From positions 32,168 through 81,478 of the forward strand of contig JBBTSG010000006.1 of the NCBI GenBank assembly GCA_038064775.1: a DNA stretch of 49,311 nucleotides, in the 5' to 3' direction. The position numbers and the translations under genes were made by a program. This document shows, piece after piece, positions 1 to 24,861 of the stretch. This DNA is from Patescibacteria group bacterium. Its GTDB lineage: Bacteria; Patescibacteriota; Minisyncoccia; UBA6257; GWB1-50-10. The notes below the pieces were generated by a model, which was given only the letters and a program-made list of their open reading frames with translations, was not told the origin of the DNA and made no database searches. Numbering within the stretch: the stretch's first letter is position 1; each line of letters begins with the position of its first letter.

Positions 1-39
1 CTCGATAAACAACTCACAAGAGTACCCATCCTAAAGACC

Positions 40-55
40 ATATATATATATATAT
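40..55 (+). repeat. (AT)8 dinucleotide microsatellite
   Basis: acc-ATATATATATATATAT-cgc read directly from the sequence. Confidence 0.95.
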
Positions 56-127
56 CGCGCCCTTCGTTGGCGAGTTTCAAACCTATTTCATAAAGGAGCT
101 AAATTAGATTGGCAGATTCATTGGTGG

Positions 128-916
128 ATGCTAGATGGATTAGAGTTTGTTAAGAAAAATAAATTAAGAGATTTTATTTTTACCGAAGAAGGAGGATTTG
201 TGAGGATGCCGAACGGATTAGAGTTTTGGTTTGACCCTACTAAGTATAACGGCATGATCCACCCTCTTATGTTTAGCGATATGAGATGCGATATAGAGGA
301 AGTAACTACGCTTCAAACTATATTAAAAAATATATCGAACTCGATTATTATTGATGCTGGAGCTGGTTATGGAGATTATGCTTGTGGAATGGCTTTTAAT
401 ACTAATGCGATTGTTTATGCTTTCGAACCAGAACTTGCACTCTATTCCTCTTTGGTTAAAACTGCGCAACACAATAAACTTGATAAAAGAGTTCATTGTT
501 ATAACTTAGCTTTAGCAGATAAGGAAGGATTTTTGGACGTAAAAATTCCTAATCAAAAAATTATTTTTCCTACGACTACCATAGATAATCTTATAGAAAA
601 AGAGAATGTTGAACGAGTTGATTTTATCAAAGCGGACATTGAGGGAGCTGAACTCAATATGTTAAAGGGTTCGGTAGGGTGTCTTAAAAAATTTAAACCT
701 CACTTATTGCTTGAAATCGTTGAAGAACACTCAGAACGAATGGGAAACTCGGTTGATGAATTATTAAAATTTCTACACGAATTTGGTTATGAAAATTGTG
801 CTTACGTGACTGAAAAAGAACAAATATTTATTAATCCGATTGAGGATCTAAAGAAAGTTTTGTCAAAAGAATATAATTTTTTCTTCTGGCATAAAGATAA
901 AAAATTCAATCTTTAA
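128..916 (+). CDS. FkbM family SAM-dependent methyltransferase (likely glycan O-methyltransferase); reading frame stays open upstream to nt 35 and may be frameshifted at an (AT)8 tract
   Basis: IIDAGAGYGDY SAM motif, VYAFEP, LALAD, TTIDNL and VDFIKADIEGAELNMLKG are FkbM hallmarks. Confidence 0.85.
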   Translation: MLDGLEFVKKNKLRDFIFTEEGGFVRMPNGLEFWFDPTKYNGMIHPLMFSDMRCDIEEVTTLQTILKNISNSIIIDAGAGYGDYACGMAFNTNAIVYAFEPELALYSSLVKTAQHNKLDKRVHCYNLALADKEGFLDVKIPNQKIIFPTTTIDNLIEKENVERVDFIKADIEGAELNMLKGSVGCLKKFKPHLLLEIVEEHSERMGNSVDELLKFLHEFGYENCAYVTEKEQIFINPIEDLKKVLSKEYNFFFWHKDKKFNL

Positions 917-1005
917 TTAACAAAGAACCCTTTAAAATAGTAAGGGCATCGTTTATATCCCCCACCTTCAAAAATAAAAAACCTAATGCTGTTTTCAAGG
1001 AAATC

Positions 1006-1515
1006 CTATTTATATGAAACGTGATTAGACATTGATTTACCAAGGAGTAATGGTTTAATAATTTGCCACAGTTTTCTATGTTCCGGAATAATATCTTGAG
1101 GCATCTTCGCAAACCACACCCCGTGCTTTGCGGTTTTTAAAGTGGCGCATGAAAAAAATATTGAAACGCATTTAAAACGTCGACTATCGTATACGATTAC
1201 TCTACGAGCCGAGAGTGATTTGCTATTTTTAATTTTCAATCCCGCCTCCACTCGCGCAGTTCTTTGGCAAGTCGTTAAAAAAGTTTCTCTGGGACTCATA
1301 TAACTTCCGGGAAAGTGCCAGCCCTTAAAATATTTGTCATTCCGATATATTAAAAGCACTTTTCTATTTTGAATTAAAGCAAGCTCCGTTGCCACTGGGA
1401 CATTTTTTCTCATAAGCGATACAAAAACATTTTCTGGAATATTAGGAATTGACGGAAGTCTTTTCAATAATTGTGCCAATGTTTTAATTTCCGCTTTGGT
1501 TAAATGTTTTTGCAT
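1006..1515 (-). CDS. Nudix-fold hydrolase with degenerate Nudix box (GDP-mannose mannosyl hydrolase-like)
   Basis: VLLIYRNDKYFKGWHFPGSYMSPRETFLTTCQRTARVEAGL resembles the Gmm/WcaH region; paralog of 9145-9642. Confidence 0.7.
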   Translation of the reverse strand: MQKHLTKAEIKTLAQLLKRLPSIPNIPENVFVSLMRKNVPVATELALIQNRKVLLIYRNDKYFKGWHFPGSYMSPRETFLTTCQRTARVEAGLKIKNSKSLSARRVIVYDSRRFKCVSIFFSCATLKTAKHGVWFAKMPQDIIPEHRKLWQIIKPLLLGKSMSNHVSYK

Positions 1516-1532
1516 ATTTTCTGGATATAAAA

Positions 1533-2483
1533 CTATATTTTTTCTCCTGTGCGTGTTTTTTTGAGATAAATCGCCCCCCTTTTTAGGAGCTTTATATTAA
1601 GCGATTTGTAATTAGCTTCATACCACCGATATAATTTCTCTATAGCTGTATCAAGTATTGTAAATTTAAAATTAGGCATTGATTTTAACAACTTGCTTAT
1701 GTCGGCGCTGTATTCTCTATCAAGGCCTTTGTTTTGAACCACAATAGGAACCTTATTTTTGCCAAATTTGTTTATTTTATTAGCAATACTTAAAAGATCC
1801 CTAGATTTACCGGTAGCCACATTAAAGACATCTCCCTTAATCTTGGAATTTATAAAAAAATCTATGGTGGCAACCAAATCATCAATATACATATAATCAA
1901 ACTGGACGTTTCGGGCAATTAAGATTGGCAAACCAAAAATGTTCCGCAAAATTGCGTTAGAAATAAACCTGAGATGATATTTTTCATATTTGCCAAAAAC
2001 ACCAAATAGGCGCAAACCAACAATATTTTTCGACGTCGCCAATATATACTTTGAACAAATATATTTTGAAAACCCGTACTCGTCTGACGGAATATGAGCG
2101 CCAAAATATTCTTCACGCATTCTCGGATGATAGTTGTGCACATCATATTCCGCTCCGCTTCCTAAAAATATCATCCGCTCAGCAATATCCAAGCATCGCT
2201 CCAAATTGAAAAACATGCGAATATTCCCTTCTGCCGCTCCTTTCAAATTAACCGTATCTCGCCTACCACCGACGTTTGCGCAGTGTATAATTACTTGTAT
2301 TTTATTTTTTTTAACGTACCGCCGCACCATATCTGCGTCCAATAAATCCAACTCGGTATGAGATGGGGCACTAACTAAATATTTTGCGGAAATAAATTCC
2401 GCAAGATTCCTACCTATGAACCCACGTCCACCAGTAATAAGAATGCGTTTTTTTCTTTTTACTACATTAGTATGACTGCTCAT
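1533..2483 (-). CDS. NAD-dependent epimerase/reductase (extended SDR, GDP-fucose synthase-like)
   Basis: ITGGRGFIG, ELDLLD, IIHCA, GSGAEY, YGFSK (YxxxK), FNVATG. Confidence 0.88.
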   Translation of the reverse strand: MSSHTNVVKRKKRILITGGRGFIGRNLAEFISAKYLVSAPSHTELDLLDADMVRRYVKKNKIQVIIHCANVGGRRDTVNLKGAAEGNIRMFFNLERCLDIAERMIFLGSGAEYDVHNYHPRMREEYFGAHIPSDEYGFSKYICSKYILATSKNIVGLRLFGVFGKYEKYHLRFISNAILRNIFGLPILIARNVQFDYMYIDDLVATIDFFINSKIKGDVFNVATGKSRDLLSIANKINKFGKNKVPIVVQNKGLDREYSADISKLLKSMPNFKFTILDTAIEKLYRWYEANYKSLNIKLLKRGAIYLKKTRTGEKI

Positions 2484-2486
2484 TAT

Positions 2487-3218
2487 CTATATAGCTGTTG
2501 GACCGACGTACTCTACATCTTCAGAATCAAGACGACGATAAGACTTCTCGTTTTTACACTCCTCCTCAACGTGAGCTATTATACCCGGTAATCGGCCCAA
2601 AATAAAAAATGCTTTGCCAAGTCGCCAATTAAATCCAAGCTCGGAAATGATTGCAGCCACTGCCCCATCAACGTTCAATGGTAGCACCTTACCTGTCTGG
2701 CGAAACAGTTCCGACTCAATTTCCCGCGCTCGATTTAAATACTTCATGGAAAGCTTCAATTCTTGCGATTTTTTAAAAAGCGCCGTGGTTCTATGATCCT
2801 CTGTTTTATAAACCTTATGGCCATATCCGGGTAACCGTTCTTTTCTCTGAATTGAGCGCTCTACTATTACCTGTGGCGAATCAGCCGACTGGAAATAAAA
2901 AGCAGCTTTTTCAATCGCGCCACCATGCATGTCTCCTATGGCGAGAATGCCCGCGGCGATGGCCGCATTCTGAGAATTGCCGGTAGAAACTACACTTCTC
3001 GCAACAAATGCTGACGGCACCTCTATTCCATGCTCTACCATGGAAATTAAAATCGCCTCCAGCATCTTAGCCTGGTTTTTAGAGGCCTGTTTTCCCTGTA
3101 AAATAAAGAATATGGTCTCCGCCAAATTTGCATCGTCCACCAATTTAGCCAAACGAACACCTCTTATATAAAACTCCCCGTCTTTATATGAGCTGATTGC
3201 AGTTTTCCATTTCATCAC
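2487..3218 (-). CDS. Citryl-CoA lyase (citrate synthase-like domain of ATP-citrate lyase)
   Basis: EHG..PSAFVAR, GDMHGGA, LPGYGHKVYK.ED.R, PLNVDGAVAA, GRLPGIIAH; about 240 aa stand-alone citrate-synthase fold. Confidence 0.88.
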   Translation of the reverse strand: MMKWKTAISSYKDGEFYIRGVRLAKLVDDANLAETIFFILQGKQASKNQAKMLEAILISMVEHGIEVPSAFVARSVVSTGNSQNAAIAAGILAIGDMHGGAIEKAAFYFQSADSPQVIVERSIQRKERLPGYGHKVYKTEDHRTTALFKKSQELKLSMKYLNRAREIESELFRQTGKVLPLNVDGAVAAIISELGFNWRLGKAFFILGRLPGIIAHVEEECKNEKSYRRLDSEDVEYVGPTAI

Positions 3219-4123
3219 CTTATTTTCCCACGAAGTTTTTCTTTAATCAACGGTGGCACGTCTTCTAAGGTGTTTACCACATAAACTCCGGCGCGTTTTA
3301 AAGAACTTACCTTTGAGGTGTAACTACCCCTTCCTTTCATGACTATCGCGCCAGCATGCCCTAAAACCGTGCCACTCGGAAGCTTTTCTGTGAATTTCCC
3401 GGCAATCAAAGCTATTATTGGTTTTTTGAATTTTGACTTTTTTATAAATCCGGCCAGTTCTTCCTCATAAATTCCGCCCACTTCGCCGAAAATTACTATG
3501 GCGCGCGTATCGTTATCCGTACCAAAGAGTTTAACTATGTCTATAAAATCAGAACCAGAAATTTGATCACCGCCAATACCAATAACAGTGCTTTGACCCA
3601 AACCTGCGTGATTTAATGTAACTGCGATTTCTGCAACCATACCACCACTTTTAGAAATAACTCCAATTCTGCCTGGTTGAAAAATATTTTTTGGATTACT
3701 ACCGCCGATACTCCCTACTTTCCCATAACCCGGAGAAATAATACCGACAGATGATGGACCGATAATAGTTGCTTTGTTTTTTCTAGCCCAAGCAAGAATT
3801 ATCGCGGTATCCATAACCGGCACATGTTCGGTTAAAATATTTATTAGCGGGATTTTATGATTAATAGCTTCAAGCGTGGCATCTTTTACCGCAAGCGCTG
3901 GCACAACAATAAGAGACGTGTTTATGGTTGGATGTAGACGTAAGACATCTTCTACCGTGTCATAAATAGGCACTCCATAAATTATTTGACCACCCTTACC
4001 GGGCGTAACGCCAGCTAGAACCTTAGTACCATAATTCCGCATCCCCTCCATGGCACGCAACCCCTCCTTGCCAGTAATTCCCTGAATAACTACTCTTGTT
4101 TTTTTATTAACGAGAATGCTCAT
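3215..4123 (-). CDS. ATP-citrate lyase/citryl-CoA synthetase CoA-binding subunit (SucD-like); start reassigned to MSILVNKK
   Basis: VIQGITGKEG, GVTPGKGG, IIGPSSVG, SKSGGM, IGIGGD, GEVGG, phospho-His motif LGHAGA. Confidence 0.88.
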   Translation of the reverse strand: MSILVNKKTRVVIQGITGKEGLRAMEGMRNYGTKVLAGVTPGKGGQIIYGVPIYDTVEDVLRLHPTINTSLIVVPALAVKDATLEAINHKIPLINILTEHVPVMDTAIILAWARKNKATIIGPSSVGIISPGYGKVGSIGGSNPKNIFQPGRIGVISKSGGMVAEIAVTLNHAGLGQSTVIGIGGDQISGSDFIDIVKLFGTDNDTRAIVIFGEVGGIYEEELAGFIKKSKFKKPIIALIAGKFTEKLPSGTVLGHAGAIVMKGRGSYTSKVSSLKRAGVYVVNTLEDVPPLIKEKLRGKIR

Positions 4124-5198
4124 AGTTTTTCTTTTTTTTTGACAAATCAACAACTAATTTAGCGGTTTCGGACATTGGCGTCCTTGAATCAAAGATATGA
4201 AAATCATAACCCTCTTTTTCTGCCACGGCCCTTAGCATCTCCTCGGCCTCCTTTTGCCGTGGTCCATCACGCCTTATAACAAAGGGATAGTTCGGCTTTG
4301 GTTTAACGCTTCTTAAGCCATCTAAAAACCCGCGCATTGTTTCATATATATCCGTAAAGTTTGCCGTACCACCTATAACCCAACAGCCCTTGAGTCCTTT
4401 TTGCGCAAGAACACGCTTCGTTAACTCCTCAACTATTTTAGCCGGTGGATTACCGGAATATTCCACATAGTTTGCTGGACGACCGCCATAAAAAAATAAA
4501 GCGTCAATATTTAAAAGAGAGGCACCCCCACCTGATGCAAGAATTGCGATATCTCCATTTAGATTTAGAAAGCTTCGTTCGTTCGGATTTATTTTCTCAT
4601 TATCCAAAATTACTTTTGCGTCACCCGCGATGAATTGACCATTTGAAGTTTTGAGTATCGGGTTAATTTCGGCAAGTAATGCATCCTCATCTAAAAATAA
4701 TTGCCATAAATTCTTAAGTAATAGGGAAAGTGGCGGGATATCCGACGAAACAAAACCGCTTTTCTGTAACGCCTCGCGAAAAAAAAATGGTTGGACGCCA
4801 GAAACCAGATCGATGGGAAATGTTTTTGCTTTTGAAATGCCAGATCCGCCTTTTGTGGAAAGCATTAGAATTGGACTTCGCAACATTAAATCATAACTGA
4901 ACGACGCATAATATTCATTACTTGCCGTGATTTTTTCTTCGACTAGAACGCTGATAATTTTTTTACCGGAAAGACCTCTTCTTAAAAGAACTTTTAATTG
5001 TTTTTTTACTTCCGATTTGGTTTTAGCGAATAATATTCCTCCGGCCTTCTTCCTCTCTCCAAAAAGAACTTGCGCTTTTACAGCATAAGGACCAGCGAAC
5101 CGAATTTTGGTCGCCGGACTACTCGCTATAACTCGACGAGGCGTAGGAATGCTGTATTTTTCAAACAATTCCTTCCCTTGAAACTCATATAATTTCAT
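4107..5198 (-). CDS. ATP-citrate lyase ATP-grasp/citrate-binding subunit (AclB/SucC-like)
   Basis: MKLYEFQGKELF, KAQV, EINP, DAK, SGGGAS, PANYVEYSGNP; GGTANFT and IRRDGP match the ACL citrate-binding motifs (GGIANFT/RRGGP) rather than SucC (GGIVRCD). Confidence 0.85.
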   Translation of the reverse strand: MKLYEFQGKELFEKYSIPTPRRVIASSPATKIRFAGPYAVKAQVLFGERKKAGGILFAKTKSEVKKQLKVLLRRGLSGKKIISVLVEEKITASNEYYASFSYDLMLRSPILMLSTKGGSGISKAKTFPIDLVSGVQPFFFREALQKSGFVSSDIPPLSLLLKNLWQLFLDEDALLAEINPILKTSNGQFIAGDAKVILDNEKINPNERSFLNLNGDIAILASGGGASLLNIDALFFYGGRPANYVEYSGNPPAKIVEELTKRVLAQKGLKGCWVIGGTANFTDIYETMRGFLDGLRSVKPKPNYPFVIRRDGPRQKEAEEMLRAVAEKEGYDFHIFDSRTPMSETAKLVVDLSKKKKNYEHSR

Positions 5199-7003
5199 GG
5201 ATTTGTCTTAGCTTCTTTCTCCAAGTCGGTCACCATTTGTTGTTTTAGTTCCGCGGGATCCAAAAACGGATACATGTCTTCGTATGGTTTGGGCACAAAT
5301 CTGCCATCGGGTAATTTATCCGACATAGTTCTTGGCGCCAATATTTGCCACTCTGGCGTCATTACGTCACAAATTACTGGCCCATCATAACTTAAAACTT
5401 CAGCTATTTTTTCATCAATCCCGTCCACTGAATCGATTCTAACGCCTTTAATTCCGTAAGCCTCCGCTATCTTAAGAGAATCCGGACACCAAAGACCAGT
5501 AGCCGGACTCTCGCCTATTAAATGTTTGTTCATAAAATTAGCTTGACTTAGTCGCATCAATAAATATCCATTGTTATTAAAAATAAAAATCTTAAGTGGT
5601 AAATTATTGTGTTTAACGGTGGCGAGCTCCTGCAAATTCATTTGCAAACTACCATCTCCAGTGATAACAATAGTATTTTTCCTATCATTAGCCACACAAG
5701 CCCCAATTCCGGCTGCCCAGTAACCCATAGTGGAAAATCCACCAGTCGTTAAAAATTTTTGACCTTTCTTTATTTTCCATGTTTGACACGCGACATGAAA
5801 ACAGGAACCGGTATCAACTAAAATCCAATCGTCTTTTGTCGCGGCCGCGGAAAGTTTGTCAGTAAAATAATATGAGTTTACCGGTTTTTCATTCTTGTAA
5901 GAAGGTTGAACAACTGGATACTTAATTCTCCATGCCTTACATACTCTTACCCACCCTCCCCAATCCGGCAATTTTTTATCGGTAATTTCTTCAAGTAACG
6001 TTTGAAGGAATTTTTTTGCCGTGCTCTTTATTTTAAGATCAATTTCAACCCCTGGCTTGTCCAGTTCTTTTTGGTCAACGTCCACAACAATTTTTTTTGC
6101 GTTTCTTCCGAAATCTTTGGGGTTATGTCCAACTAATGACGTGGCTAATCTGCAACCAACAACTACTATTAAATCTGAATTTTGAATCGCAAAATTTGCA
6201 GCTCTTTCCCCATACGTACCCGGCCTACCAACATACAATTTATGCTCGCTATCAATTAAATCTATTGCTAAACGCGCGGTTAAAATTGGAATTTTTAGCA
6301 AATTAATAAGATTCTCGAATTCTCCCTCCGCGCTACCCAATTTTATCCCTTGCCCAACCAAGAGTATTGGTCTTTTTGCACTTAGTAACATTTGGACTAG
6401 TTCTGCGATTTGACCTTTGTCAGACGCGAACTCTTCTTCCGTTTCTTGTTCATTAAAAATCTTTGCCGGTTTTTCCGGAACTTCAGCTCTTTGTATATCC
6501 AACGGCACATCAAGCCAAACCGGACCAGGCCTGCCGTTCATGGCAAGATAATAAGCCTTCTCCAAATAATATAATAAGTTAGCGGGGTTATCGACGGTAA
6601 CAAAAAATTTAACTACGTCTTTTACTAACGGTTTTATGTTTATACCCTGGACTCCAACTTGCCGAATTTTATTTTTTTCCTGATAATCGACAAACGCTAA
6701 ATTCGTCTGTCCAGAAATAATAATCATTGGCGAAGAATCTACCCAGCCGCCAACCACGCCGTTAATAACGTTCACCGCGCCGGGCCCCGCGGTTACCATA
6801 GCAATCGCTGGCTTTTTTTTTAGCCGTCCGTAGGCTTCAGCTGCCATTCCGGCTGCCTGTTCGTGATGAGAACAAATAACCTTAATTTTCTTACTCCTAT
6901 AAATCGCGTCATTTAGAAACATGGATTGCCCACCAGCAACCATAAACACCGCCTCAACTTCTTTTTCTTCAAAAAATTTTAAAATATAATCAGCAACAAT
7001 CAT
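5195..7003 (-). CDS. ThDP-dependent acetolactate-synthase-like enzyme, YerE/ErwE type (branched-sugar acyl transferase)
   Basis: HHEQAAGMAAE, VTAGPG, RPGPVWLDVPLDIQ, TGDGSLQMNLQEL..NNNGY; glycan-locus context. Confidence 0.85.
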   Translation of the reverse strand: MIVADYILKFFEEKEVEAVFMVAGGQSMFLNDAIYRSKKIKVICSHHEQAAGMAAEAYGRLKKKPAIAMVTAGPGAVNVINGVVGGWVDSSPMIIISGQTNLAFVDYQEKNKIRQVGVQGINIKPLVKDVVKFFVTVDNPANLLYYLEKAYYLAMNGRPGPVWLDVPLDIQRAEVPEKPAKIFNEQETEEEFASDKGQIAELVQMLLSAKRPILLVGQGIKLGSAEGEFENLINLLKIPILTARLAIDLIDSEHKLYVGRPGTYGERAANFAIQNSDLIVVVGCRLATSLVGHNPKDFGRNAKKIVVDVDQKELDKPGVEIDLKIKSTAKKFLQTLLEEITDKKLPDWGGWVRVCKAWRIKYPVVQPSYKNEKPVNSYYFTDKLSAAATKDDWILVDTGSCFHVACQTWKIKKGQKFLTTGGFSTMGYWAAGIGACVANDRKNTIVITGDGSLQMNLQELATVKHNNLPLKIFIFNNNGYLLMRLSQANFMNKHLIGESPATGLWCPDSLKIAEAYGIKGVRIDSVDGIDEKIAEVLSYDGPVICDVMTPEWQILAPRTMSDKLPDGRFVPKPYEDMYPFLDPAELKQQMVTDLEKEAKTNP

Positions 7004-7008
7004 CGTTT

Positions 7009-8013
7009 TTATTGGTGTTTTTTTGACAAATTCACGGCTACATCTACAATAACATCTTCTTGACCAGCAACAACTTTTCGTTTTCCTAACTCCATAAAAA
7101 TATCTCTAGCATCAACTCCAAACTCTTCGGCCGCTTTCTTTACATGCGGAGTAAAACCAGAAAACACCCCCGCTAAACCGCTTACAATACTGATCGGGTC
7201 AATCCCTTGGAGGGTTTTCATTATCGGCTTTATTATCTCCTCGCCAGCATCCAAAAGCTTATATAGCTCTACGCCCGTATCTATCCCAGCTTTCTGCATC
7301 AAAGCCATCAAAGCTTCGAGTTGGCAATTACCCGCACCCGCCCCAAATCCCCTCACCGTGCCATCAATAATACTTGCCCCGGACTCTAAAGCGATAAAAG
7401 AATTGGCCACGGCCATACTTAAATTATTATGGGCGTGAAAGCCAACTAGAATTTTTAAATTATCCGCCAAGTGTTTAACCGTTTCCCTAACCATAAGAGT
7501 GGTGGATGAACCAGCCGAATCCATAAGCAACACGCCCTTTACGCCATAGCTTTGCATTTTTTTTGCCTCTTCTAATAATCTTTCTTTCGAAGCCATATGA
7601 TACATCATTAGAACGCCAAAAGCCTCTTTTCTTTTACTAACCACATACTCAATATGCTGCTGGGTAATATCAGCTTCCGTACAATGCGTTCCTACACAAA
7701 CCAAATCTACTCCAGCATCAAGCGCTGGAGCCAAATCATCTTTAATAGTGCCAAATCCAGGAATCAAAAAGGTTCCTAGTTTGGTTTTTTTTAACGCTTC
7801 GCGCGCCGTAGAAATTATTTCCAAATCAGAATAAGCCGAAAGTCCAACCTGAAGAGTTGAAGCACCCAAGCCATTACCGTGTCCAACAATAACAGCGTAG
7901 AGACCAGACCCGTCAACTTTTTCACAATAGCTTTTGATTGTGAGGGGGTTAATTTGGTGCCTTACTGCGTGCGACCCATCCCTTAAAGTGGAATCAAAAA
8001 AAATAGGTTTCAT
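7009..8013 (-). CDS. dmpG: 4-hydroxy-2-oxovalerate aldolase
   Basis: DSTLRDGSHAVRHQ, VGHGNGLGAS, THCTEAD, GFHAHNNL, LGKRKVVAGQED. Confidence 0.93.
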   Translation of the reverse strand: MKPIFFDSTLRDGSHAVRHQINPLTIKSYCEKVDGSGLYAVIVGHGNGLGASTLQVGLSAYSDLEIISTAREALKKTKLGTFLIPGFGTIKDDLAPALDAGVDLVCVGTHCTEADITQQHIEYVVSKRKEAFGVLMMYHMASKERLLEEAKKMQSYGVKGVLLMDSAGSSTTLMVRETVKHLADNLKILVGFHAHNNLSMAVANSFIALESGASIIDGTVRGFGAGAGNCQLEALMALMQKAGIDTGVELYKLLDAGEEIIKPIMKTLQGIDPISIVSGLAGVFSGFTPHVKKAAEEFGVDARDIFMELGKRKVVAGQEDVIVDVAVNLSKKHQ

Positions 8014-8891
8014 TTGTTTTTATATTTTTTTCTGGCGTATTCTTCTGCAACTTGTACGGCTGCGGAGGTTATTATGTCTAAGTTTCCGGAATACTCTGGT
8101 AAAAAATCGCCTAGGCCGGTCACTTCGGTGGTAATGGTAAGACGACCATTTTCGTAAGTCGGCCCCAAAATAAGCTTGTATCCAGACGCATATTTTTTGA
8201 TTTGCGCAATAATTTCTTTTATTTTTTCCTCTATTTCCTTCAATTTTGGCTTTTCAATTTCAGCGTAAATCGTATTGCGCATCCGAACCGGCGGTTCTGC
8301 CGGATTCAAAATAATAACGGCTTTTGCTTTAGGCACCCCGGAGTAATGCTCAATCGCGTCTTTGGTTGTCTGAGTATATTCATCAATGTTTGCTCGCGTA
8401 CCAGGACCAGCTGATTTAGAAGAAATTGTCGCAACGATTTCAATATATTTTATCTCCGGGTGTATTTCCATTAGAACCTTAGCTATTGGCGCCGTGGCTT
8501 GACCGCCACAAGTCACCATATTAATGTTTTCCGCGCCGATACTTTCTTCCAAGTCAATAACCGGAACGCACATTCTGCCAAACCTTGATGGAGTTAAGTC
8601 AATTACAAATTTGCCAAGTTTTTTTAAAATTGGGGCGTTAACCATATGCGCTTTCGCAGAAGTCGTGTCAAAAACAACTTCACAAATATCTGGCTCGTCT
8701 AAAATTACCTGAATTGAATCCGCAGAAGTCCTGATGCCCATCTCTTTTGCTTTTTGAATTCCTTTGGACTTAGCGTCGCGCCCGGCAAAAATACTACATT
8801 CCAAAAGATCAGACCGTCGTATCTTAAATAGCAAGTCCATCCCAATATTGCCAGTACCGATAATGCCTATTTTAACTTTTTTATTTTCCAT
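8010..8891 (-). CDS. dmpF: Acetaldehyde dehydrogenase (acylating)
   Basis: IIGTGNIG, DLTP, NMVTCGGQAT (catalytic Cys), SKSAGPGTRANIDEY, GNLDIITSAA. Confidence 0.93.
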   Translation of the reverse strand: MENKKVKIGIIGTGNIGMDLLFKIRRSDLLECSIFAGRDAKSKGIQKAKEMGIRTSADSIQVILDEPDICEVVFDTTSAKAHMVNAPILKKLGKFVIDLTPSRFGRMCVPVIDLEESIGAENINMVTCGGQATAPIAKVLMEIHPEIKYIEIVATISSKSAGPGTRANIDEYTQTTKDAIEHYSGVPKAKAVIILNPAEPPVRMRNTIYAEIEKPKLKEIEEKIKEIIAQIKKYASGYKLILGPTYENGRLTITTEVTGLGDFLPEYSGNLDIITSAAVQVAEEYARKKYKNK

Positions 8892-9045
8892 TTAATGAAT
8901 CTATATATAATGTGAGCTCCGCACGAAAGCTTCAACGAAAAATTACCAGGTCCTTGCCTTGATTTATAGTCTGTTTTCCAATAATTCCCATTTAAACATA
9001 CAATCAACTAGGTTTCAAGCTGATTCGAAAAAAATCGTCCCACAC

Positions 9046-9074
9046 TTGACAAATCTTTTGTGATACGTTAAGAT
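9046..9074 (+). promoter_or_regulatory. sigma70 promoter of the Nudix gene at 9145
   Basis: TTGACA-N17-TAAGAT. Confidence 0.8.
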
Positions 9075-9144
9075 GTGTCTAGCATTCGGAAGCTTCGATC
9101 GACGTGGCAATCCGAAAAAAACTGAATAAAAGAAAGGTGGAAAA

Positions 9145-9642
9145 ATGCTCGTAGCGCACGAAATAGAACTACTCGTTGCACTTCTTCAAAGGGTCGAATG
9201 GCCGCTGAATCCGAAAATTTTTCGCGCGTTCGTTAATATCGTAGTATCCGTTCCTATTGAACTAGCGGTACTTAATGAACGGGACGAAATCCTTATGTTC
9301 TATCGCAAGGACGAAGAGTACGATGGGAATCATATTCCCGGTACGGTGCTCCGCGATAATGAGACTGTTTCCGATGCAATTGCTCGTTTGCGCAAGAGCG
9401 AAGTAGTCGGCGGCAACATATCGGATCCTATCGACATAGGACACATAGAGATCGTGAAAGGAAATGGTTTTGGCGAGAACCCGACGCGCCATGAAATTTC
9501 TCTCGTTCATGTATCGCGACTCATGGGTCCTTATACAGGGAGTGGAAAATTTTATCTCCTAGACAGATTACCAGAAGATACACTGCCTCATCACCAAAAG
9601 CTAGTCAGTAAAGTTATCGAATATCTGCAAACGCTGAACTGA
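9145..9642 (+). CDS. Nudix-fold hydrolase with degenerate box; paralog of 1006-1515
   Basis: VPIELAV..ILMFYRKDEEYDGNHIPGTVLRDNET; SD AGAAAGGTGG upstream. Confidence 0.7.
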   Translation: MLVAHEIELLVALLQRVEWPLNPKIFRAFVNIVVSVPIELAVLNERDEILMFYRKDEEYDGNHIPGTVLRDNETVSDAIARLRKSEVVGGNISDPIDIGHIEIVKGNGFGENPTRHEISLVHVSRLMGPYTGSGKFYLLDRLPEDTLPHHQKLVSKVIEYLQTLN

Positions 9643-9678
9643 TGGGAGCGGCTGATAATGACTTGATAATTCAAATCC

Positions 9679-9707
9679 GTGGGAGCTAAATTGCTCCCAC
9701 TTTTTTT
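9679..9707. terminator. Intrinsic terminator between convergent genes
   Basis: GTGGGAGC-taaatt-GCTCCCAC followed by T7 on the plus strand. Confidence 0.8.
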
Positions 9708-9728
9708 ATCAAAAAAAAATAGTATTTT

Positions 9729-10973
9729 TTATTTAATTCCGCGCTTTTTTAAAAAAAATCCTGTTATTTCACAAACATAATCAATCATTTTATCTGTCAA
9801 GCCGTGATGTAAGCCAATAAGAAAGGAATTCCCCGTTATAAATTGCGAATTGGCTAGATTGCCAATCTTTCTGTATTTCACATTCGCATAAGCCGGTTGC
9901 TTTATTATATTCCCCGAGAAAAGTGGTCTTGTCTGAATCTTATGGCGCTCCAAATATCTAACCAGCTCATTTCTCGTAAATGGAGCGTCTTTTTTTATCG
10001 TTAGTGGAAAGGCTAACCAATTAACGTTCGTTCGGGGAAATTCTTTCGGTAAAATGAAGTATTCCTCAAATTGTCCAAAAAATTCGTAGAGCCGCTTAAA
10101 ATTATTCCTGCGCAAACTTGTAAAACCTTTCAATCTATTTAACTGCTCTAACCCAAATGCGGCCTGAATCTCGGTAGGCTTGAAATTATATCCTAGTTCC
10201 ACGAAAACGAAGGCGCTATCATACGGTTTACCATCAATCTTAAAAGTGGCTAACCGGGAACGAATGTCTTGATCGTGGCGCGAGATTCCCCTCCCCCAGT
10301 CACGAAACAACCTGGCTCTTTCCCTCAATTTTTTATCGTTGGTCATGAGCATACCGCCCGCCCCGCCAGTTGTTATTAGATGAGAGGCATAAAAACTCGT
10401 AGTCGTAACATCGCTCCATTTCCCCGATGGCTGACCGTTAAATTTCCCGCCAATAGTGTCACAGCTATCTTCAATGAAAACTAATCCATGTTTTTTGCAA
10501 AAACTCCTAATAGTTGGCAAATCCACAAAATTGCCGATCAGATGCGGCGCCATAACCGCCACGGTTTTATTGGAAATAGTTTTCTCTAATTCTTTTGGAT
10601 TTATTTGATAAGTTCCCGGCTCCACATCCACAAACACCGGAACCAAACCAGTTTGGATTATCGGAGCCACGGTCGTATTAAATGTGCACGCCGGGGTAAT
10701 TATCTCAGAACCCTTAGGGAATTTTAAGGCGCAAAGCGCTAAAAGGTTTGCGGAAGAACCAGAATTTACGAAAAGTCCGTACCTTTTTCCATATAATCCC
10801 GCTACCTTATTTTCAAATTCTGCAGTAATTTTTCCGGTTGTTAACCAACCACTTTTTAGTGCTTTATTAACAGCTACTATTTCTTTTTTACTGTATGCGT
10901 CAGTAGTATTCGGCGCATACCAAACCCAATCTTTTCCGGGAATAAATTTTTTACCGCTTATAAGAGAATTCAT
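9729..10973 (-). CDS. E1/RfbH(DdhC)-like PMP-dependent NDP-4-keto-6-deoxyhexose 3-dehydratase, lacking the Fe-S cysteine loop
   Basis: VNSGSSANLLA, SFYASHLIT (His at the Schiff-base Lys site), FRDWGR, GYNFKPTEIQAAFG, TRPLFSGNI.KQP. Confidence 0.85.
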   Translation of the reverse strand: MNSLISGKKFIPGKDWVWYAPNTTDAYSKKEIVAVNKALKSGWLTTGKITAEFENKVAGLYGKRYGLFVNSGSSANLLALCALKFPKGSEIITPACTFNTTVAPIIQTGLVPVFVDVEPGTYQINPKELEKTISNKTVAVMAPHLIGNFVDLPTIRSFCKKHGLVFIEDSCDTIGGKFNGQPSGKWSDVTTTSFYASHLITTGGAGGMLMTNDKKLRERARLFRDWGRGISRHDQDIRSRLATFKIDGKPYDSAFVFVELGYNFKPTEIQAAFGLEQLNRLKGFTSLRRNNFKRLYEFFGQFEEYFILPKEFPRTNVNWLAFPLTIKKDAPFTRNELVRYLERHKIQTRPLFSGNIIKQPAYANVKYRKIGNLANSQFITGNSFLIGLHHGLTDKMIDYVCEITGFFLKKRGIK

Positions 10974-10986
10974 TATTCAATAATGA

Positions 10987-12045
10987 TTAATGCATTTCCG
11001 TTCTGCCTTTTTCGGTCTCTATCGGAACGTGACGCATCCACAGTTTTTCTTTCCACCAATTTTCATTATTGATATACCAATCGATAACTGACCGGAGACC
11101 GCTTTCAAATGAGATTTTTGGCTCCCAACCAAGAACTTTTTTAATTTTATCTACTCCTGCAGTATGCCGAAAAACTTGACCTGGGCGATCCCCAATATTC
11201 ATAGATGAAAAACTGTATTGGACCTTACTGCTTTTATTCTTCATATATTCCATGATAAGATCAGCTATTTTTGAAACAGAGTAATCTTCCCCAGTACCAA
11301 CATTAAAAACCTCACCTTCAACTTTTTCCGCGGGAGCGTGCAAAATTAAATCTATAGCATTAGATAAGTCGTCTACGTAAGTAAAATCCCTTTTGCTATT
11401 ACCTGTGCCGTGTATAGTAAGCGGCTCTCTCAAAATACAGCTGGTGATAAAGCGGGGAATTAACTTCTCAAGATGTTGGTTCGGACCAAACATGTTAAAA
11501 GGGCGGACAATCACTGCCGGAATTTTATAAGTTGATACATAAGAATAAACTAGTCGATCAGCTCCAGCCTTGGCGGCGGCATAAGGACTTGCGGGATTAA
11601 GAGGGTGATCTTCATGCATTTTATCAGTAACCGCCGTACCATAAACTTCACTGGTCGAGATGTGAATAAATCTCTTGATTCTGTCTCTGTGTCGCAAAAC
11701 CGCGTTTGCCACCCGTTGAGTACCAATAACATCCGTCTCAAAAAATCTTTCGTCATCATAAATCGAACGAGCCACATGAGTTTCGGCGGCAAAATGAATA
11801 ACGACATTCGCTCGCGAGACAAGCTCTTCAACGAGTTTGGCATTTTTTACATCTCCATAGACGAAACGAAAATTTGAGGATTCGTGAATCCTTTTTGAAA
11901 TATTATGAATATCTCCCGCATACGTGAGCGCATCGAGAACAATGAAATTATATTTAGGGTATTTATCGAACAGATAAGCGAGTACATTGCTACCAATAAA
12001 TCCGGCAGCCCCAGTTATTAAAATTGTATTTCTGTCAGATATCAT
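10987..12045 (-). CDS. RmlB-like NDP-sugar 4,6-dehydratase (or decarboxylase) with a TSE active-site variant
   Basis: ITGAAGFIGS, DALTYAG, HFAAETHV, HISTSEVYG, PYAAAK, RDFTYVDD, DRPG. Confidence 0.85.
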   Translation of the reverse strand: MISDRNTILITGAAGFIGSNVLAYLFDKYPKYNFIVLDALTYAGDIHNISKRIHESSNFRFVYGDVKNAKLVEELVSRANVVIHFAAETHVARSIYDDERFFETDVIGTQRVANAVLRHRDRIKRFIHISTSEVYGTAVTDKMHEDHPLNPASPYAAAKAGADRLVYSYVSTYKIPAVIVRPFNMFGPNQHLEKLIPRFITSCILREPLTIHGTGNSKRDFTYVDDLSNAIDLILHAPAEKVEGEVFNVGTGEDYSVSKIADLIMEYMKNKSSKVQYSFSSMNIGDRPGQVFRHTAGVDKIKKVLGWEPKISFESGLRSVIDWYINNENWWKEKLWMRHVPIETEKGRTEMH

Positions 12046-12056
12046 TAAAAATGATA

Positions 12057-13091
12057 TTACCTCATACTCTCAAATATATCAAGAATAGACTTAACTCTAT
12101 TGATAAAAAGGTGTCCACCATTCACGATTTTCTCTTGGCCGTTTTTGGCTATGTTTTTCCGTAATAGATCGTGCTTCAAATAAAAATCTATTTTGTTTTT
12201 CATCTCATCATACGAATCGAAAAATTCTGCCTCCTTGCCTTCTTCAAGGAATTCACCAATTTTTGAAGTCCGGCTATGAAGCATGAAAGCGCCGCAAGCA
12301 GGAATTTCAAATGTGCGACAAGCCAAGGTCTCATCGTTGTGTTCCCGCACAAAAGCGAGAGCGATTTTGCTTGAATTCAAAACCTTAGACATATTGCCAC
12401 AAGACGCTTCTTTAAATTGAATACAACCTTTTTTAAAAAGACATGAGCTCTTAGGACATTTCTCCCAACTATTACCATAAATTTTTATATCATAACCCTC
12501 TCCACACAACTTTTCCATATATTCAAATCTATTCTCTTTAGCATAAGTTCCTATAAAAACAATGTCGGCGCCAAGTCGGTCTTTTTCTTCCGGTGTCACT
12601 TCGGTGGGTTTATGACAGTCGGGATCGGCGGCGCAGGTTAAAAAGATAGCTTTTTTAGCTCCAAGTTTTAATAATTCTTTTGAATTCGCGAAATTAAAGA
12701 AAAAATGACAGTCATACAAAGGAATTGATTTATAAAAATAGGTGCTACAGGTTTTTGGAAATAAAACATAATCCGGATACCAAGAAAAAACTTTCGTAAT
12801 ACCGGACAATGCTTTAACGGTTTTTGGTTTAATTAATATGGGTTTAAAGCATAAAATGAAATCGGGTTTAAAGCTCTTGACGCGTTTTATGAGTTCTTTA
12901 TTAAGTTTTCCAGTAAAGAAATAATAAGGGGTCCTAAGGAGGCGATAACTTATTTTATTTATTAAGGATGTATTAAAATATTCTTCTTGACGCACAATAT
13001 CAACCTCAATATTAAGTTTTTTAAGAGCTTTGTAAATAAAATTTATTTCTCCTCCACCTCCAGTCCATTTGCCTGTTAATAATACTTTCAT
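12057..13091 (-). CDS. CgeB-like glycosyltransferase (GT-B fold)
   Basis: DIVFIGT, IKIYGNSW, LNSSKIAL, RTFEIPACGAFML, FLEEGKEAEFF. Confidence 0.85.
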   Translation of the reverse strand: MKVLLTGKWTGGGGEINFIYKALKKLNIEVDIVRQEEYFNTSLINKISYRLLRTPYYFFTGKLNKELIKRVKSFKPDFILCFKPILIKPKTVKALSGITKVFSWYPDYVLFPKTCSTYFYKSIPLYDCHFFFNFANSKELLKLGAKKAIFLTCAADPDCHKPTEVTPEEKDRLGADIVFIGTYAKENRFEYMEKLCGEGYDIKIYGNSWEKCPKSSCLFKKGCIQFKEASCGNMSKVLNSSKIALAFVREHNDETLACRTFEIPACGAFMLHSRTSKIGEFLEEGKEAEFFDSYDEMKNKIDFYLKHDLLRKNIAKNGQEKIVNGGHLFINRVKSILDIFESMR

Positions 13092-14346: not shown

Positions 14347-15426
14347 TTAGAACAAATCCGCCCAAATCACCATTGCCCGCCTAATTTTATTCCAATACTC
14401 ACCTGGATGAGGTAGTTTACTCGAGATCTCTTTATATAAATCCTTAACATTTGTCCCACTCAGATTCATTTCGTAAACTATCTGCCATAAATTCTCGTTT
14501 ATTTCTAATCCTGATCTCTCTTTTTCCAAATTAACGTATGGATCGCTCGCCCGATCATGCCAAACCACCGGATGACCAGAAGCGGCGCGGTAGTCCAAAA
14601 CATCAATAATCTTCTTCGCAAATACGCCAGCCCAAATATCATCAAATCTGTCATAACCCCACAGCTCGCCCGCTGCGTTTTTGCCCATTAACAGAAAATA
14701 CATTGCGGGCGTAAGTTCGCGCTTCCAAGCTACGTTCATTCCACACATTGGAAAAAAACTCCACCGCGGAATCATACGGTCGTGAAAATAGTGGTCGATA
14801 TGGGGAATTTCCTTCATATTTATTTGGGTCTCGGCATCCACGTCTGGCACGTTTGCCCAAAGACCATGAGAAAGCATTACTCGTTCGGAACCGAGAGGGT
14901 GCTCGAAATTTTTATGTGGGAACCCGCGAGGATTCAAATTGAGCGTCGAAGATACCCATGCCGGCTCCCGAAATTTCCTTTCAAAGAGATTGTGACGGTG
15001 AGTCTCCACGAGATCGTAAATATGATGCGCCTTGAGGTGAGCGCTATAATTCAGGGAAGGATAACAATCGTCGTCCAGAGAAATTATCATATCCGCACCA
15101 AGTTGATAGGCCTTCCAAAAACCGTAGGACTTAATAGAGCTCGAACGCCGCGGGATTATCCAATTGTCTAAACCGAGATCATTTTCAATATCTGCCCAAC
15201 TCAGATGAAGAACATTAAAATCAAGTTTTTTGTCGTCAATTCCAAAGGCCTTAACGGGATTATCCTCAACCACTACCAAAACCACCTCGTTTTTTTTAAA
15301 AATATCCTTCCATTCGTCCAAAAATCTCAAAATTGATTCTTGTCGTATAGTTGGAACAACAACGAATATTCGTGTCGTCGCTTCTTTTTGCTCTTTATGA
15401 GATTTTGTTTTTTGAACGTGAAGCAT
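14347..15426 (-). CDS. Reversibly glycosylated polypeptide (RGP)/UDP-arabinopyranose mutase family (GT75) homolog
   Basis: VVPTIR, SLDDDCYP (DxD), RGFP, SHGLWANVPDVDAETQI, FPMCGMNVAW, PAMYFLLMG, RFDDIWAG, WHDRASDPYVNLEKE occur in the same order as in plant RGP/UAM. Confidence 0.88.
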   Translation of the reverse strand: MLHVQKTKSHKEQKEATTRIFVVVPTIRQESILRFLDEWKDIFKKNEVVLVVVEDNPVKAFGIDDKKLDFNVLHLSWADIENDLGLDNWIIPRRSSSIKSYGFWKAYQLGADMIISLDDDCYPSLNYSAHLKAHHIYDLVETHRHNLFERKFREPAWVSSTLNLNPRGFPHKNFEHPLGSERVMLSHGLWANVPDVDAETQINMKEIPHIDHYFHDRMIPRWSFFPMCGMNVAWKRELTPAMYFLLMGKNAAGELWGYDRFDDIWAGVFAKKIIDVLDYRAASGHPVVWHDRASDPYVNLEKERSGLEINENLWQIVYEMNLSGTNVKDLYKEISSKLPHPGEYWNKIRRAMVIWADLF

Positions 15427-16798: not shown

Positions 16799-17809
16799 TT
16801 ATTTTATCTCAGAAATATTTACGATTCGTTTCTCCGCGTCTGAAACCCTAGCCGCTTCAAGAATACGAGCTTGAGCTAAAAGGTCGCCTTCGTAATCTTT
16901 TTTGCCATCCCCTCCTTTTAAAATTTCTCCGCAAAAATCATCGAACATTAATTTAAAATGGTCAGCAGGTTCAACTGTAATTTCTTGTATCTTATCATTT
17001 TTATCAAGGAAAATTTTTGTCGCTATATCTCTAGGAACTGCATACGCTCTTCCCATTCTTAGATATGCTTTACTACCTAAAACACCATACGTGGACTGAA
17101 AATAAGAACCATAAATAGTGGAAGCGAAGGCAGTTTTGTCACCCGAGTAATATAAAACCATATCAGCTTTTACATCAACGCGACTTTCAGGATCAAATTT
17201 CATTTTACATAAAATACTCTTAGGTTCTTCGCCGAAGATCATCCGACTCGCATAAATTGGGTAAGGCCCTTGGTAATTCAACGAACCGCCGCCAAGATTT
17301 TTATTCAATAAATTTACTCCATTACCCGATCCTGGAATTCCAAAACACGCATCAAACCTAATAAGATCGCCTAGTACGTCCTGTTTTATCAACTCTTTTA
17401 CTTTTTCGTGTTGCGGGTGATAGCGAAACATTAACCCCTCAATAATACGAACTCTGTTGTTTTTAGCGGCTTCAACCATTCGCTTTGCAGAGGCGTAAGA
17501 AATTGCGGCTGGTTTTTCGCAAATCACATGTTTCCCGGCCTTAATCGCTTGCATAGACCACTCTTCGTGAAAAGCGTTTGGCAACGAAATATAAATAGCG
17601 TTAATGTCTTTATTCTTTAAAACATCTTCATATGTTCCCCACGCGCTAACTCTAGATTCTTTAGAAACCTCCCTAGTTTTTTCCGGATTTCTTGAACCAA
17701 TCATAACTAACTCAACAAACTCCGAATCCCGCATTGCCGGAAATACATTTTTAATAGCTACGCTAGAACAACCAATCACGCCAAATTTAACTTTTGAGCT
17801 GGTTTTCAT
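16799..17809 (-). CDS. Gfo/Idh/MocA family oxidoreductase (NDP-sugar 3-keto reductase/dehydrogenase-like)
   Basis: FGVIGCS, YISLPNAFH, HVICEKP, MFRYHPQH, LGGGSL. Confidence 0.88.
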   Translation of the reverse strand: MKTSSKVKFGVIGCSSVAIKNVFPAMRDSEFVELVMIGSRNPEKTREVSKESRVSAWGTYEDVLKNKDINAIYISLPNAFHEEWSMQAIKAGKHVICEKPAAISYASAKRMVEAAKNNRVRIIEGLMFRYHPQHEKVKELIKQDVLGDLIRFDACFGIPGSGNGVNLLNKNLGGGSLNYQGPYPIYASRMIFGEEPKSILCKMKFDPESRVDVKADMVLYYSGDKTAFASTIYGSYFQSTYGVLGSKAYLRMGRAYAVPRDIATKIFLDKNDKIQEITVEPADHFKLMFDDFCGEILKGGDGKKDYEGDLLAQARILEAARVSDAEKRIVNISEIK

Positions 17810-17810
17810 T

Positions 17811-18932: not shown

Positions 18933-18980
18933 AAAACCCATTATGGCAGAAAGGAGCGAAAAATAAAAGATGTTAAAAAA

Positions 18981-19016
18981 ATCCCCCAGTCTTATTTTAA
19001 GAACTGGGGGTATTTT
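18981..19016 (-). terminator. Intrinsic terminator of the 19015-19791 gene
   Basis: CCCCCAG-TTCTTAAAATAAGA-CTGGGGG followed by ATTTTTT on the minus strand. Confidence 0.7.
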
Positions 19017-21442: not shown

Positions 21443-22000
21443 TCACTCCTTTCTTTTTTTGGCCCATAGGCCGGTTTTGTATTTTACGTCTCCCACTTTT
21501 TTTAACATCACGAGTTCGATATTACCTTTACCTACAAGCCCGGGAATATTTCCCACATGAATATATCCTGCTTTGAGATAAAGTCGCTGTCCTACAGGAT
21601 TGTCCTTACTTGTGGAAAGATATATTGTCGCAAGGTTCGGAATGCCACAAACTTCTTTTATGTATCGCACCGCAAGTTTATCGCCTTTGATAAGAAGTTT
21701 TATGCCAATGCCTTGCCCCTGCATGTTCTTACTTATGCCAATCATGTTCAAATAAACCGTGCCGTTGGTCGGGGGTTTATTCTCATAGTGAATGAAACCG
21801 ATAATCTTGTCTCCTTGTTTTGCAACAATTACGATTTCATTCTCATCATTAAGAGCTGTTCTAAAAAATCTTCGGCATTTTTCTCTGTCGAAACCCTTCC
21901 CATAATTAAAGTCCTGCGGAAATGTACCTTCGACAACGTCAATAATGCCACGCTCATCTCCCCGGATGGCTAACCGAATTTGAATTCTTCTCTTATTCAC
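21443..22000 (-). CDS. GNAT family N-acetyltransferase
   Basis: IGFIHY, LNMIGISKNMQGQGIGIKLL (motif A), N..GQRLYLKAGY. Confidence 0.85.
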   Translation of the reverse strand: MNKRRIQIRLAIRGDERGIIDVVEGTFPQDFNYGKGFDREKCRRFFRTALNDENEIVIVAKQGDKIIGFIHYENKPPTNGTVYLNMIGISKNMQGQGIGIKLLIKGDKLAVRYIKEVCGIPNLATIYLSTSKDNPVGQRLYLKAGYIHVGNIPGLVGKGNIELVMLKKVGDVKYKTGLWAKKRKE

Positions 22001-24784: not shown

Positions 24785-24790
24785 GGCATT

Positions 24791-24858: not shown

Positions 24859-24861
24859 AGG

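Follow-up and report, generated by a model that had tools for sequence, protein, structure and literature searches.

Organization of the locus

The window analyzed here, by which we mean the whole stretch of DNA under study, comprises 49,311 nucleotides from a Patescibacteria group bacterium (assembly GCA_038064775.1, contig JBBTSG010000006.1, forward-strand positions 32,168 to 81,478). Between positions 1006 and 12045 it carries a run of minus-strand genes, assigned by Pfam, NCBIfam, and PDB comparisons (Table 1), in which the enzymes of an acyl-branched-sugar cassette stand together with a citrate-cleavage trio (ccsA, ccsB, and ccl). The cassette is made up of the genes for an acylating acetaldehyde dehydrogenase (dmpF), a 4-hydroxy-2-oxovalerate aldolase (dmpG), and a thiamine diphosphate (ThDP)-dependent carboligase; a short-chain dehydrogenase/reductase (SDR), a nucleoside diphosphate (NDP)-hexose 4,6-dehydratase, and an E1-like 3-dehydratase are encoded in the same run. 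The interpretation that we favor, with slightly better than even confidence, is that this is an erwiniose-type branched-sugar operon of a Parcubacteria-type member of the candidate phyla radiation (CPR), fused to a CPR citrate-cleavage module that would feed it with acetyl coenzyme A (acetyl-CoA).

A sequence-only reading of this DNA had named the genes of the run from the 4,6-dehydratase to the SDR, and all of them were recovered in place on the minus strand. The tight coupling that it described holds from dmpF onward and extends through the NUDIX-like gene that ends the unit, but the E1-like gene and dmpF are 837 nt apart and have a plus-strand open reading frame (ORF) between them. Within the coupled part, neighboring genes overlap at dmpF/dmpG (4 nt), ThDP/ccsA (4 nt), ccsA/ccsB (17 nt), and ccsB/ccl (1 nt) and are otherwise separated by gaps of 5 nt (dmpG/ThDP), 3 nt (ccl/SDR), and 17 nt (SDR/NUDIX-like). 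Exactly the same gene order was found by targeted look-up in locus L163, which comes from an independent sample and shares 84% nucleotide identity with the window (91% identity for the ThDP enzyme). As this order recurs in L163 and about 76 of 80 related loci share the dmpG-ThDP core, the arrangement is not a product of chance. The nearest named relatives of the operon are Ryanbacteria metagenome-assembled genomes (MAGs). A CPR origin is also supported by ClpB of the window, for which every one of the top named homologues belongs to Patescibacteria, Jorgensenbacteria, or Paceibacterota.

Table 1. Features of the operon and of the adjoining glycan locus (window positions)
Feature	Position	Strand	Supporting match
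NDP-hexose 4,6-dehydratase, RmlB-like	10987-12045	-	Pfam GDP_Man_Dehyd, 243 bits
E1/RfbH-like pyridoxamine phosphate (PMP)-dependent 3-dehydratase	9729-10973	-	NF011936, 403 bits (just below cut-off of 423)
Degenerate NUDIX-like ORF, 165 aa	9145-9642	+	Resembles ORF 1006-1515; no Pfam match
DmpF/BphJ/ErwJ-like acylating acetaldehyde dehydrogenase	8010-8891	-	TIGR03215, 385 bits (cut-off, 282)
DmpG/BphI/ErwI-like 4-hydroxy-2-oxovalerate aldolase	7009-8013	-	TIGR03217, 377 bits (cut-off, 286)
YerE/ErwE/JanthE-like ThDP carboligase, 602 aa	5195-7003	-	JanthE (8rph), 387 bits
CcsA, citryl-CoA synthetase large subunit, AclB-like	4107-5198	-	Pfam ATP-grasp_2, 112 bits; Citrate_bind, 78 bits
CcsB, citryl-CoA synthetase small subunit, SucD-like, 302 aa	3215-4123	-	Pfam CoA_binding and Ligase_CoA
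Ccl, citryl-CoA lyase	2487-3215	-	NF004869, 255 bits (cut-off, 212)
SDR reductase, candidate ErwF/YerF-type branch ketoreductase	1533-2483	-	Pfam Epimerase, 93 bits; RmlD_sub_bind
NUDIX-like protein, final gene of the unit	1006-1515	-	Pfam NUDIX, 32 bits
Reversibly glycosylated polypeptide (RGP) family ORF	14347-15426	-	PF03214, 131 bits
GFO/IDH/MocA oxidoreductase and DegT aminotransferase	16799-19043		
GNAT family gene	21443-22000		
GDP-mannose 4,6-dehydratase, NDP-hexose C-methyltransferase, and cupin (FdtA-like)	23699-26482		
1152-aa protein	28655-32113	-	Peptidoglycan-binding domain (sole Pfam match)

Relationship to the erwiniose cluster

The sugar part of the operon has a published precedent. 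In 2022, Steitz et al. proposed, and in part demonstrated in vitro, a biosynthetic route for the erwiniose cluster found in Pectobacterium atrosepticum SCRI1043 (PMC9306805). That cluster encodes a YerE-like ThDP enzyme (ErwE), a reductase (ErwF), a BphI-like aldolase (ErwI), a BphJ-like dehydrogenase (ErwJ), and the enzymes for CDP-4-keto-3,6-dideoxyglucose; ErwE takes 4-hydroxy-2-oxopentanoate, as the (R)-donor, and refuses pyruvate (PMC9306805). In the window, genes for a BphI-like aldolase and a BphJ-like dehydrogenase lie directly upstream of the ThDP gene. The two systems share a YerE-like carboligase, this aldolase, and this dehydrogenase, with the SDR as the candidate reductase and the 4,6-dehydratase and E1-like enzyme as candidates for making the acceptor, and they share the same proposed chemistry, namely, a C4 branch on a hexose that yields a C10 sugar. 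The chain envisaged in the sequence-only reading, which runs from acetyl-CoA through acetaldehyde and 4-hydroxy-2-oxovalerate to a C4 acyl branch and its reduction, matches the ErwJ/ErwI/ErwE/ErwF scheme (PMC9306805), and the sugar part is therefore not new. The same reading had named MyGE in connection with caryophyllose, which requires correction, gastriose being the MyGE product (PMC9306805). The window differs from the erwiniose cluster in its CPR host, in having the citrate-cleavage trio inside the operon, in encoding an RmlB-like instead of a CDP-type dehydratase and an E1-like enzyme without the Fe-S cysteines, and in lacking cytidylyltransferase and E3 genes within its 49 kb.

Among solved structures, the ThDP enzyme scores highest against JanthE of Janthinobacterium sp. 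HH01 (8rph, 387 bits), compared with 245 bits for PpYerE and about 230 bits for acetohydroxyacid synthases (AHAS). Its score against TIGR00118 (361 bits) lies below the AHAS equivalog cut-off of 538, RLATSLVG occupies the place of the AHAS RFDDR motif, and a C-terminal extension is shared with JanthE, which likewise lacks RFDDR. Judged against JanthE and PpYerE as PDB proxies, the enzyme is thus of the YerE type and not a biosynthetic AHAS, in agreement with the original assignment. A role as a biosynthetic AHAS (IlvB/G/I) was rejected on the low model score, the missing RFDDR motif, and a neighborhood consisting entirely of sugar genes. The window enzyme has a canonical GDG in its ThDP motif, whereas JanthE has CDG. 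As to substrates, YerE of Yersinia pseudotuberculosis uses pyruvate, and JanthE is promiscuous, taking pyruvate and longer 2-oxo acids. The SDR encoded at the other side of the trio is a candidate branch ketoreductase of the ErwF/YerF type; homologues with 41 to 52% identity directly follow the ThDP gene in L083, L084, L107, L118, L159, L162, and other loci.

The aldolase and the dehydrogenase share with the catabolic DmpFG/BphIJ complexes (1nvm) the fold, the catalytic residues, the DmpG communication domain, and an adjacent, overlapping gene arrangement, and both exceed the equivalog cut-offs; DmpF also matches the Pfam AcetDehyd-dimer family with 168 bits. Alignment of DmpG to 1nvm showed that the catalytic residues R17, D18, H21, H200, and H202 are all kept. 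In contrast, the window enzyme has Phe at the positions of both Leu88 and Tyr291 (DmpG numbering), which are Leu and Tyr in the three catabolic structures aligned (8ih7, 1nvm, and 4lrs), and its gene lies in a glycan locus and not in a setting of aromatic catabolism. The substitution extends to the related cassettes: every one of the 70 aldolases carries Phe at position 291, and 66 of them carry Phe or Tyr at position 88. The equivalent residues of BphI, Leu87 and Tyr290, determine stereochemistry, in that control over 4S is lost in Y290F and the double variants L87W/Y290F and L87N/Y290F are 4R specific (PMC3962088). With Phe at position 291 and Phe or Tyr at position 88, the cassette aldolases look like natural 4R-4-hydroxy-2-oxopentanoate synthases, and the signature of the window DmpG predicts a (4R) product, the donor preferred by ErwE. 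Judged by these two residues, the Phe/Phe aldolase is a natural equivalent of L87W/Y290F, the BphI variant engineered to 4R selectivity. The window pair would differ from the catabolic complexes in acting in a biosynthetic setting and in the predicted reverse direction.

The sequence-only reading had also placed a 4,6-dehydratase and an E1-like enzyme just upstream of the coupled genes. Both are present, but neither conforms to the enzymes of the CDP-sugar route. The 4,6-dehydratase resembles the dTDP-glucose type (TIGR01181, 319 bits; cut-off, 365) far more than CDP-glucose 4,6-dehydratase (82 bits) and shares just 23 to 30% identity with its counterparts in most other cassette loci. The E1-like enzyme has E1 of Y. 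pseudotuberculosis as its top solved structure (3bcx, 294 bits; ColD, 184 bits), and its His aligns with E1 His220, which stands in place of Lys, a position that was checked through the H220K mutant structure 3bb8. Of the [2Fe-2S] cysteines of E1 (C193, C251, C253, and C261), only C193 is retained. This loss is common to L163, L002/L082, L083, L162, and L149, while about 37 of 50 E1-like sequences in the comparison have all four cysteines. Window enzyme, E1, and ColD are all 3-dehydratases dependent on PMP or pyridoxal phosphate in which His replaces the aminotransferase Lys; E1 is the closest overall, and ColD is the one that, like the window enzyme, is without the E1 [2Fe-2S] cysteines. ColD operates without an E3 reductase. 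Lacking the Fe-S cysteines as ColD does, the window enzyme may therefore need no E3 either, and a reductase-independent, ColD-like 3-deoxygenation of a non-CDP sugar is plausible from its sequence. A Pfam search of the ORFs of at least 100 aa not nested in a larger gene found no E3 reductase gene and no NDP-sugar nucleotidyltransferase gene in the 49-kb window. As E3 is likewise missing from the recurrent neighbors of the 80 cassette loci, its absence from the window does not discriminate between the readings considered below.

Citrate cleavage genes

The three genes inserted between the ThDP enzyme and the SDR look like a functional citryl-CoA synthetase (CCS; CcsAB) and citryl-CoA lyase (CCL; Ccl). 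The top solved structure for CcsA is the large subunit of the Hydrogenobacter thermophilus citryl-CoA synthetase (6hxq_B), and its ATP-grasp_2 and Citrate_bind matches both exceed the Pfam cut-offs. CcsB contains the GHAGA phosphohistidine motif. Ccl likewise finds the H. thermophilus Ccl as its top structure (6hxp, 227 bits) and retains the citrate-synthase-type catalytic motifs HGGA, GYGHKVYK, and NVDGA. The proposal that a genuine, co-operonic citryl-CoA synthetase/lyase set lies in this operon is thus upheld by the structural matches, the motifs kept in Ccl, and the GHAGA motif. Malate-CoA ligase with malyl-CoA lyase and succinyl-CoA synthetase were considered as alternative identities and rejected, given the Citrate_bind match, a Ccl score above its cut-off, and the CCS and CCL structures as best matches.

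The H. thermophilus enzymes (6hxq and 6hxp) show the same three-gene split and are the nearest structural relatives of the trio, although the window CcsA is shorter (363 aa, versus 429 aa in H. thermophilus). CCS and CCL of Hydrogenobacter serve the reductive tricarboxylic acid cycle. The trios of the window type, unlike those in the Hydrogenobacter setting, lie in glycan and amino-sugar operons.

Distribution of the sugar cassette

Metagenomes were scanned with aligned homologues of the ThDP enzyme, which gave 262 relatives, and the best 80 (58 to 71% identity) constitute the cassette loci examined. In 76 of these 80 loci, the gene immediately before that of the ThDP enzyme encodes DmpG. DmpF is present in 61, a 4,6-dehydratase in 51, an E1-like enzyme in 49, a nucleoside triphosphate (NTP)-transferase in 38, and a family 2 glycosyltransferase in 35, and an SDR of one of two types follows directly downstream (24 and 17 loci, respectively). 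Among the sources of the homologues are CPR phyla, Omnitrophota, Desulfotomaculaceae, and Mobilitalea as well as Firmicutes-like MAGs and human gut metagenome contigs. Since the cassette is so widespread, erwiniose-type acyl-branched sugars probably occur at cell surfaces far more often than the small number of solved glycan structures would suggest. No other genes for acetyl-CoA supply were found beside the cassette among the recurrent neighbor clusters of the 80 loci. The dmpF-dmpG-ThDP cassette with an E1 gene was also seen outside the CPR, on gut contigs L133 and L152 and in L096, L104, and others.

Distribution of the citrate cleavage trio

The distribution of the trio was surveyed by a CcsA scan with one genome per species, in which CcsA relatives were found in 340 species genomes and the best 80 loci were examined. 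Of the loci kept, 72 of 80 are labeled CPR, DPANN, or unclassified MAGs, and the order ccsA-ccsB-ccl is nearly universal among them. When the flanking genes of these 80 CPR/DPANN loci were clustered, GlmS was found beside the trio in 27 (on the same strand in 22), typically 0 to 26 nt upstream of ccsA, and a GNAT gene was found in 10, usually 5 to 36 nt downstream of ccl. CofD/YvcK-like genes lie downstream of the trio in 21 loci and GlmU-like genes (NTP-transferase plus hexapeptide acyltransferase) in 12. Operons of this kind join a maker of glucosamine-6-phosphate, an acetyl-CoA generator, and candidate N-acetyltransferases, and from their gene content they look like a built-in acetyl-CoA generator for N-acetylglucosamine synthesis. 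Because the CPR neighbors are acetyl-CoA-consuming sugar steps, a function of the trio as acetyl-CoA supplier fits. This CPR/DPANN-wide association of CcsAB and Ccl with amino-sugar genes is, in our view, the most interesting outcome of the analysis.

These counts alter the picture drawn in the sequence-only reading, in which citrate cleavage was a dedicated acetyl-CoA generator built into the sugar operon of an organism with minimal metabolism. Supply of acetyl-CoA for sugars emerges as a general CPR theme, but the word dedicated does not stand, since CcsA occurs in 340 species genomes and the trio usually lies beside glmS, GNAT, and glmU-like genes. CPR and DPANN organisms have been reported to have very limited central metabolism. 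Among the papers searched, none links either citryl-CoA synthetase or citryl-CoA lyase to these organisms or describes the operons with GlmS, and one notes an enrichment of aclAB in Saccharimonadia.

Same-strand GlmS-trio operons were observed in L004, L005, L014, L017, L023-L026, L032, L034, L035, L037, and L041 and further in L042, L046, L049, and L066. They are followed either by a GNAT gene or by a CofD/YvcK-like and then a GlmU-like gene.

Fusion of trio and cassette

The joining of the two modules is rare. The ThDP/DmpFG cassette accompanies the trio in 1 of the 80 trio loci (L002, a Ryanbacteria MAG), and the trio accompanies the cassette in 2 of the 80 cassette loci, namely, L083, another Ryanbacteria MAG, and L082, whose DNA is that of L002. 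Together with the window and L163, this gives four genomes with fused cassette and trio, in two gene orders: ThDP-trio-SDR (window and L163) and ThDP-SDR-trio (L002 and L083). A further targeted look-up identified L162, whose ThDP enzyme is the closest to that of the window after L163 (78% identity); this locus has the cassette without the trio.

Neighbor-joining trees place the four fused trios in a single group; the corresponding ThDP and DmpG proteins group together as well, with L162 nested inside. In the simplest history, the modules fused once, the genes were rearranged once within the operon, and the trio was lost or moved elsewhere once. The embedded trio is a lineage-restricted feature. 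The sequence-only reading had made recurrent linkage of ATP-citrate lyase-type genes to these sugar genes in related genomes a test of its proposal; such linkage recurs, but only in one small clade, as the trio is joined to the cassette in just four related genomes and is missing from the remaining cassette loci and from L162.

Proposed pathway and alternative explanations

In the pathway that we favor, CcsAB and ATP would convert citrate to citryl-CoA, which Ccl would cleave to acetyl-CoA and oxaloacetate. DmpF would reduce acetyl-CoA to acetaldehyde, and DmpG would join acetaldehyde and pyruvate to (4R)-4-hydroxy-2-oxopentanoate. The ThDP enzyme would decarboxylate this donor and place the resulting 3-hydroxybutanoyl (C4) unit on C4 of an NDP-4-keto-3,6-dideoxyhexose, an acceptor predicted to come from the RmlB-like 4,6-dehydratase together with the E1-like 3-dehydratase that lacks the Fe-S cysteines. 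The SDR would then reduce the branch ketone to give a 1,3-dihydroxybutyl-branched C10 sugar, and the adjacent glycosyltransferases may transfer it. The analysis establishes which genes are present, how the operon is laid out, how far the cassette is conserved, and where the trio occurs. Direction of flux, the identities of donor and acceptor, and delivery of acetyl-CoA by the trio to DmpF rather than to the general acetyl-CoA pool are what we infer here from the gene content.

Several observations weigh against this pathway as a whole. Being a general module, the trio may simply feed the whole cell, and the GNAT gene and the amino-sugar pathway of the window also need acetyl-CoA. The trio is absent from 78 of the 80 cassette loci and from the nested L162, and hence the cassette works without a trio nearby. 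The pathway would also require a supply of citrate in the CPR cell. Finally, the acceptor sugar and its nucleotide are uncertain, because the window is without nucleotidyltransferase and E3 genes and the E1-like enzyme is without three of the four Fe-S cysteines.

Part of this evidence is the basis of an account that we consider somewhat unlikely, in which the trio is a housekeeping source of acetyl-CoA and oxaloacetate that came into the operon by local rearrangement and has no tie to DmpF or to the branched sugar. Across the 340 species genomes with CcsA relatives, the trio is nearly always apart from the cassette; its commonest partners are the glmS, GNAT, YvcK-like, and GlmU-like genes; the nested L162 has kept a cassette but has no trio; and other likely acetyl-CoA users are present in the window, namely, the GNAT gene and the aminotransferase/oxidoreductase pair. 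On the other hand, the trio of the window and of L163 has the ThDP gene on one side and the reductase gene on the other, with codons that overlap, the linkage has outlasted one rearrangement and divergence to 63 to 71% protein identity, and DmpF is the sole acetyl-CoA-dependent enzyme of that transcription unit. The difference between such a housekeeping trio and one that feeds the sugar operon is mainly one of degree. Far less probable, in our estimation, is a different donor for the ThDP enzyme, either pyruvate, which would give a yersiniose-type C2 branch, or oxaloacetate derived from Ccl, with DmpFG serving another purpose. The promiscuity of JanthE, the nearest solved relative, would allow for it, but in about 76 of 80 loci, with or without a trio, dmpG immediately precedes the ThDP gene, and the precedent enzyme ErwE refuses pyruvate (PMC9306805). 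We regard as extremely unlikely a catabolic, citrate-forming direction, in which DmpG and DmpF would split 4-hydroxy-2-oxovalerate to pyruvate and acetyl-CoA, from which Ccl and CcsAB would make citrate and ATP. This would leave the ThDP enzyme without a role; moreover, meta-cleavage pathway genes are not found nearby, and the cassette always lies within glycan loci with E1, 4,6-dehydratase, and glycosyltransferase genes. DmpF and DmpG do exceed equivalog cut-offs that were built on catabolic enzymes, and the kinetics of BphI favor cleavage, yet the residues that determine stereochemistry are unlike those of 1nvm, 8ih7, and 4lrs. The CCS and CCL reactions, which belong to the succinyl-CoA-synthetase and citrate-synthase families, are reversible in principle, and this counts in favor of the catabolic direction.

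The favored pathway can be extended, in a form that we consider speculative and unlikely to hold in its entirety. CcsAB and Ccl would be a CPR/DPANN-wide source of acetyl-CoA for envelope sugars, and in the Ryanbacteria-like clade one citrate would give both halves of the C5 donor, with oxaloacetate decarboxylated on DmpG and the 4R aldol reaction thereby pulled past its unfavorable equilibrium. Class II pyruvate aldolases decarboxylate oxaloacetate via the same pyruvate enolate (PMC5065237), and because they do so, the oxaloacetate released by Ccl could be the aldol nucleophile; BphI kinetically favors cleavage over this synthetic direction.

If the trio is the CPR/DPANN acetyl-CoA route for envelope glycans, scavenged citrate would be a key host dependency and a handle for cultivation. 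The fused operon would represent a compact set of seven enzymes, amenable to reconstitution in vitro, that leads from citrate to the precursor of a branched sugar. Where 4R-selective pyruvate aldolases are sought, the Phe/Phe enzymes offer natural candidates, and the ThDP enzymes may join the few catalysts able to build chiral tertiary alcohols.

Other features of the operon and the glycan locus

The plus-strand ORF in the gap between the E1-like gene and dmpF breaks up the operon. It is missing in the closest relative, L163, and it is followed by a terminator-like hairpin of its own at positions 9679 to 9700. No Rfam match was found in this gap in a search of positions 1 to 13000 at E values of up to 1, and promoter-like sites were uninformative (33 seen, versus 28.6 +/- 5.4 expected). 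The same ORF and the final gene of the unit, which bracket the stretch from dmpF to the SDR gene, are both NUDIX-like but divergent, and their NUDIX boxes are degenerate. The final gene is kept at the equivalent place in L163 with 82% identity, and a related 243-aa NUDIX protein is encoded by the first gene of the L083 operon.

Beyond the operon, the window continues into further glycan genes (Table 1), and from this gene content the locus probably makes several unusual sugars. The GFO/IDH/MocA oxidoreductase and the DegT aminotransferase form a pair of the 3-amino-sugar type, the GNAT gene lies apart from them, and the GDP-mannose 4,6-dehydratase is grouped with the C-methyltransferase and cupin genes. 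The RGP family ORF stands among the glycosyltransferase genes; this family is best known from plants. The gene for the 1152-aa protein with the peptidoglycan-binding domain lies in the part of the window with the highest GC content (48.5%, versus about 40%).

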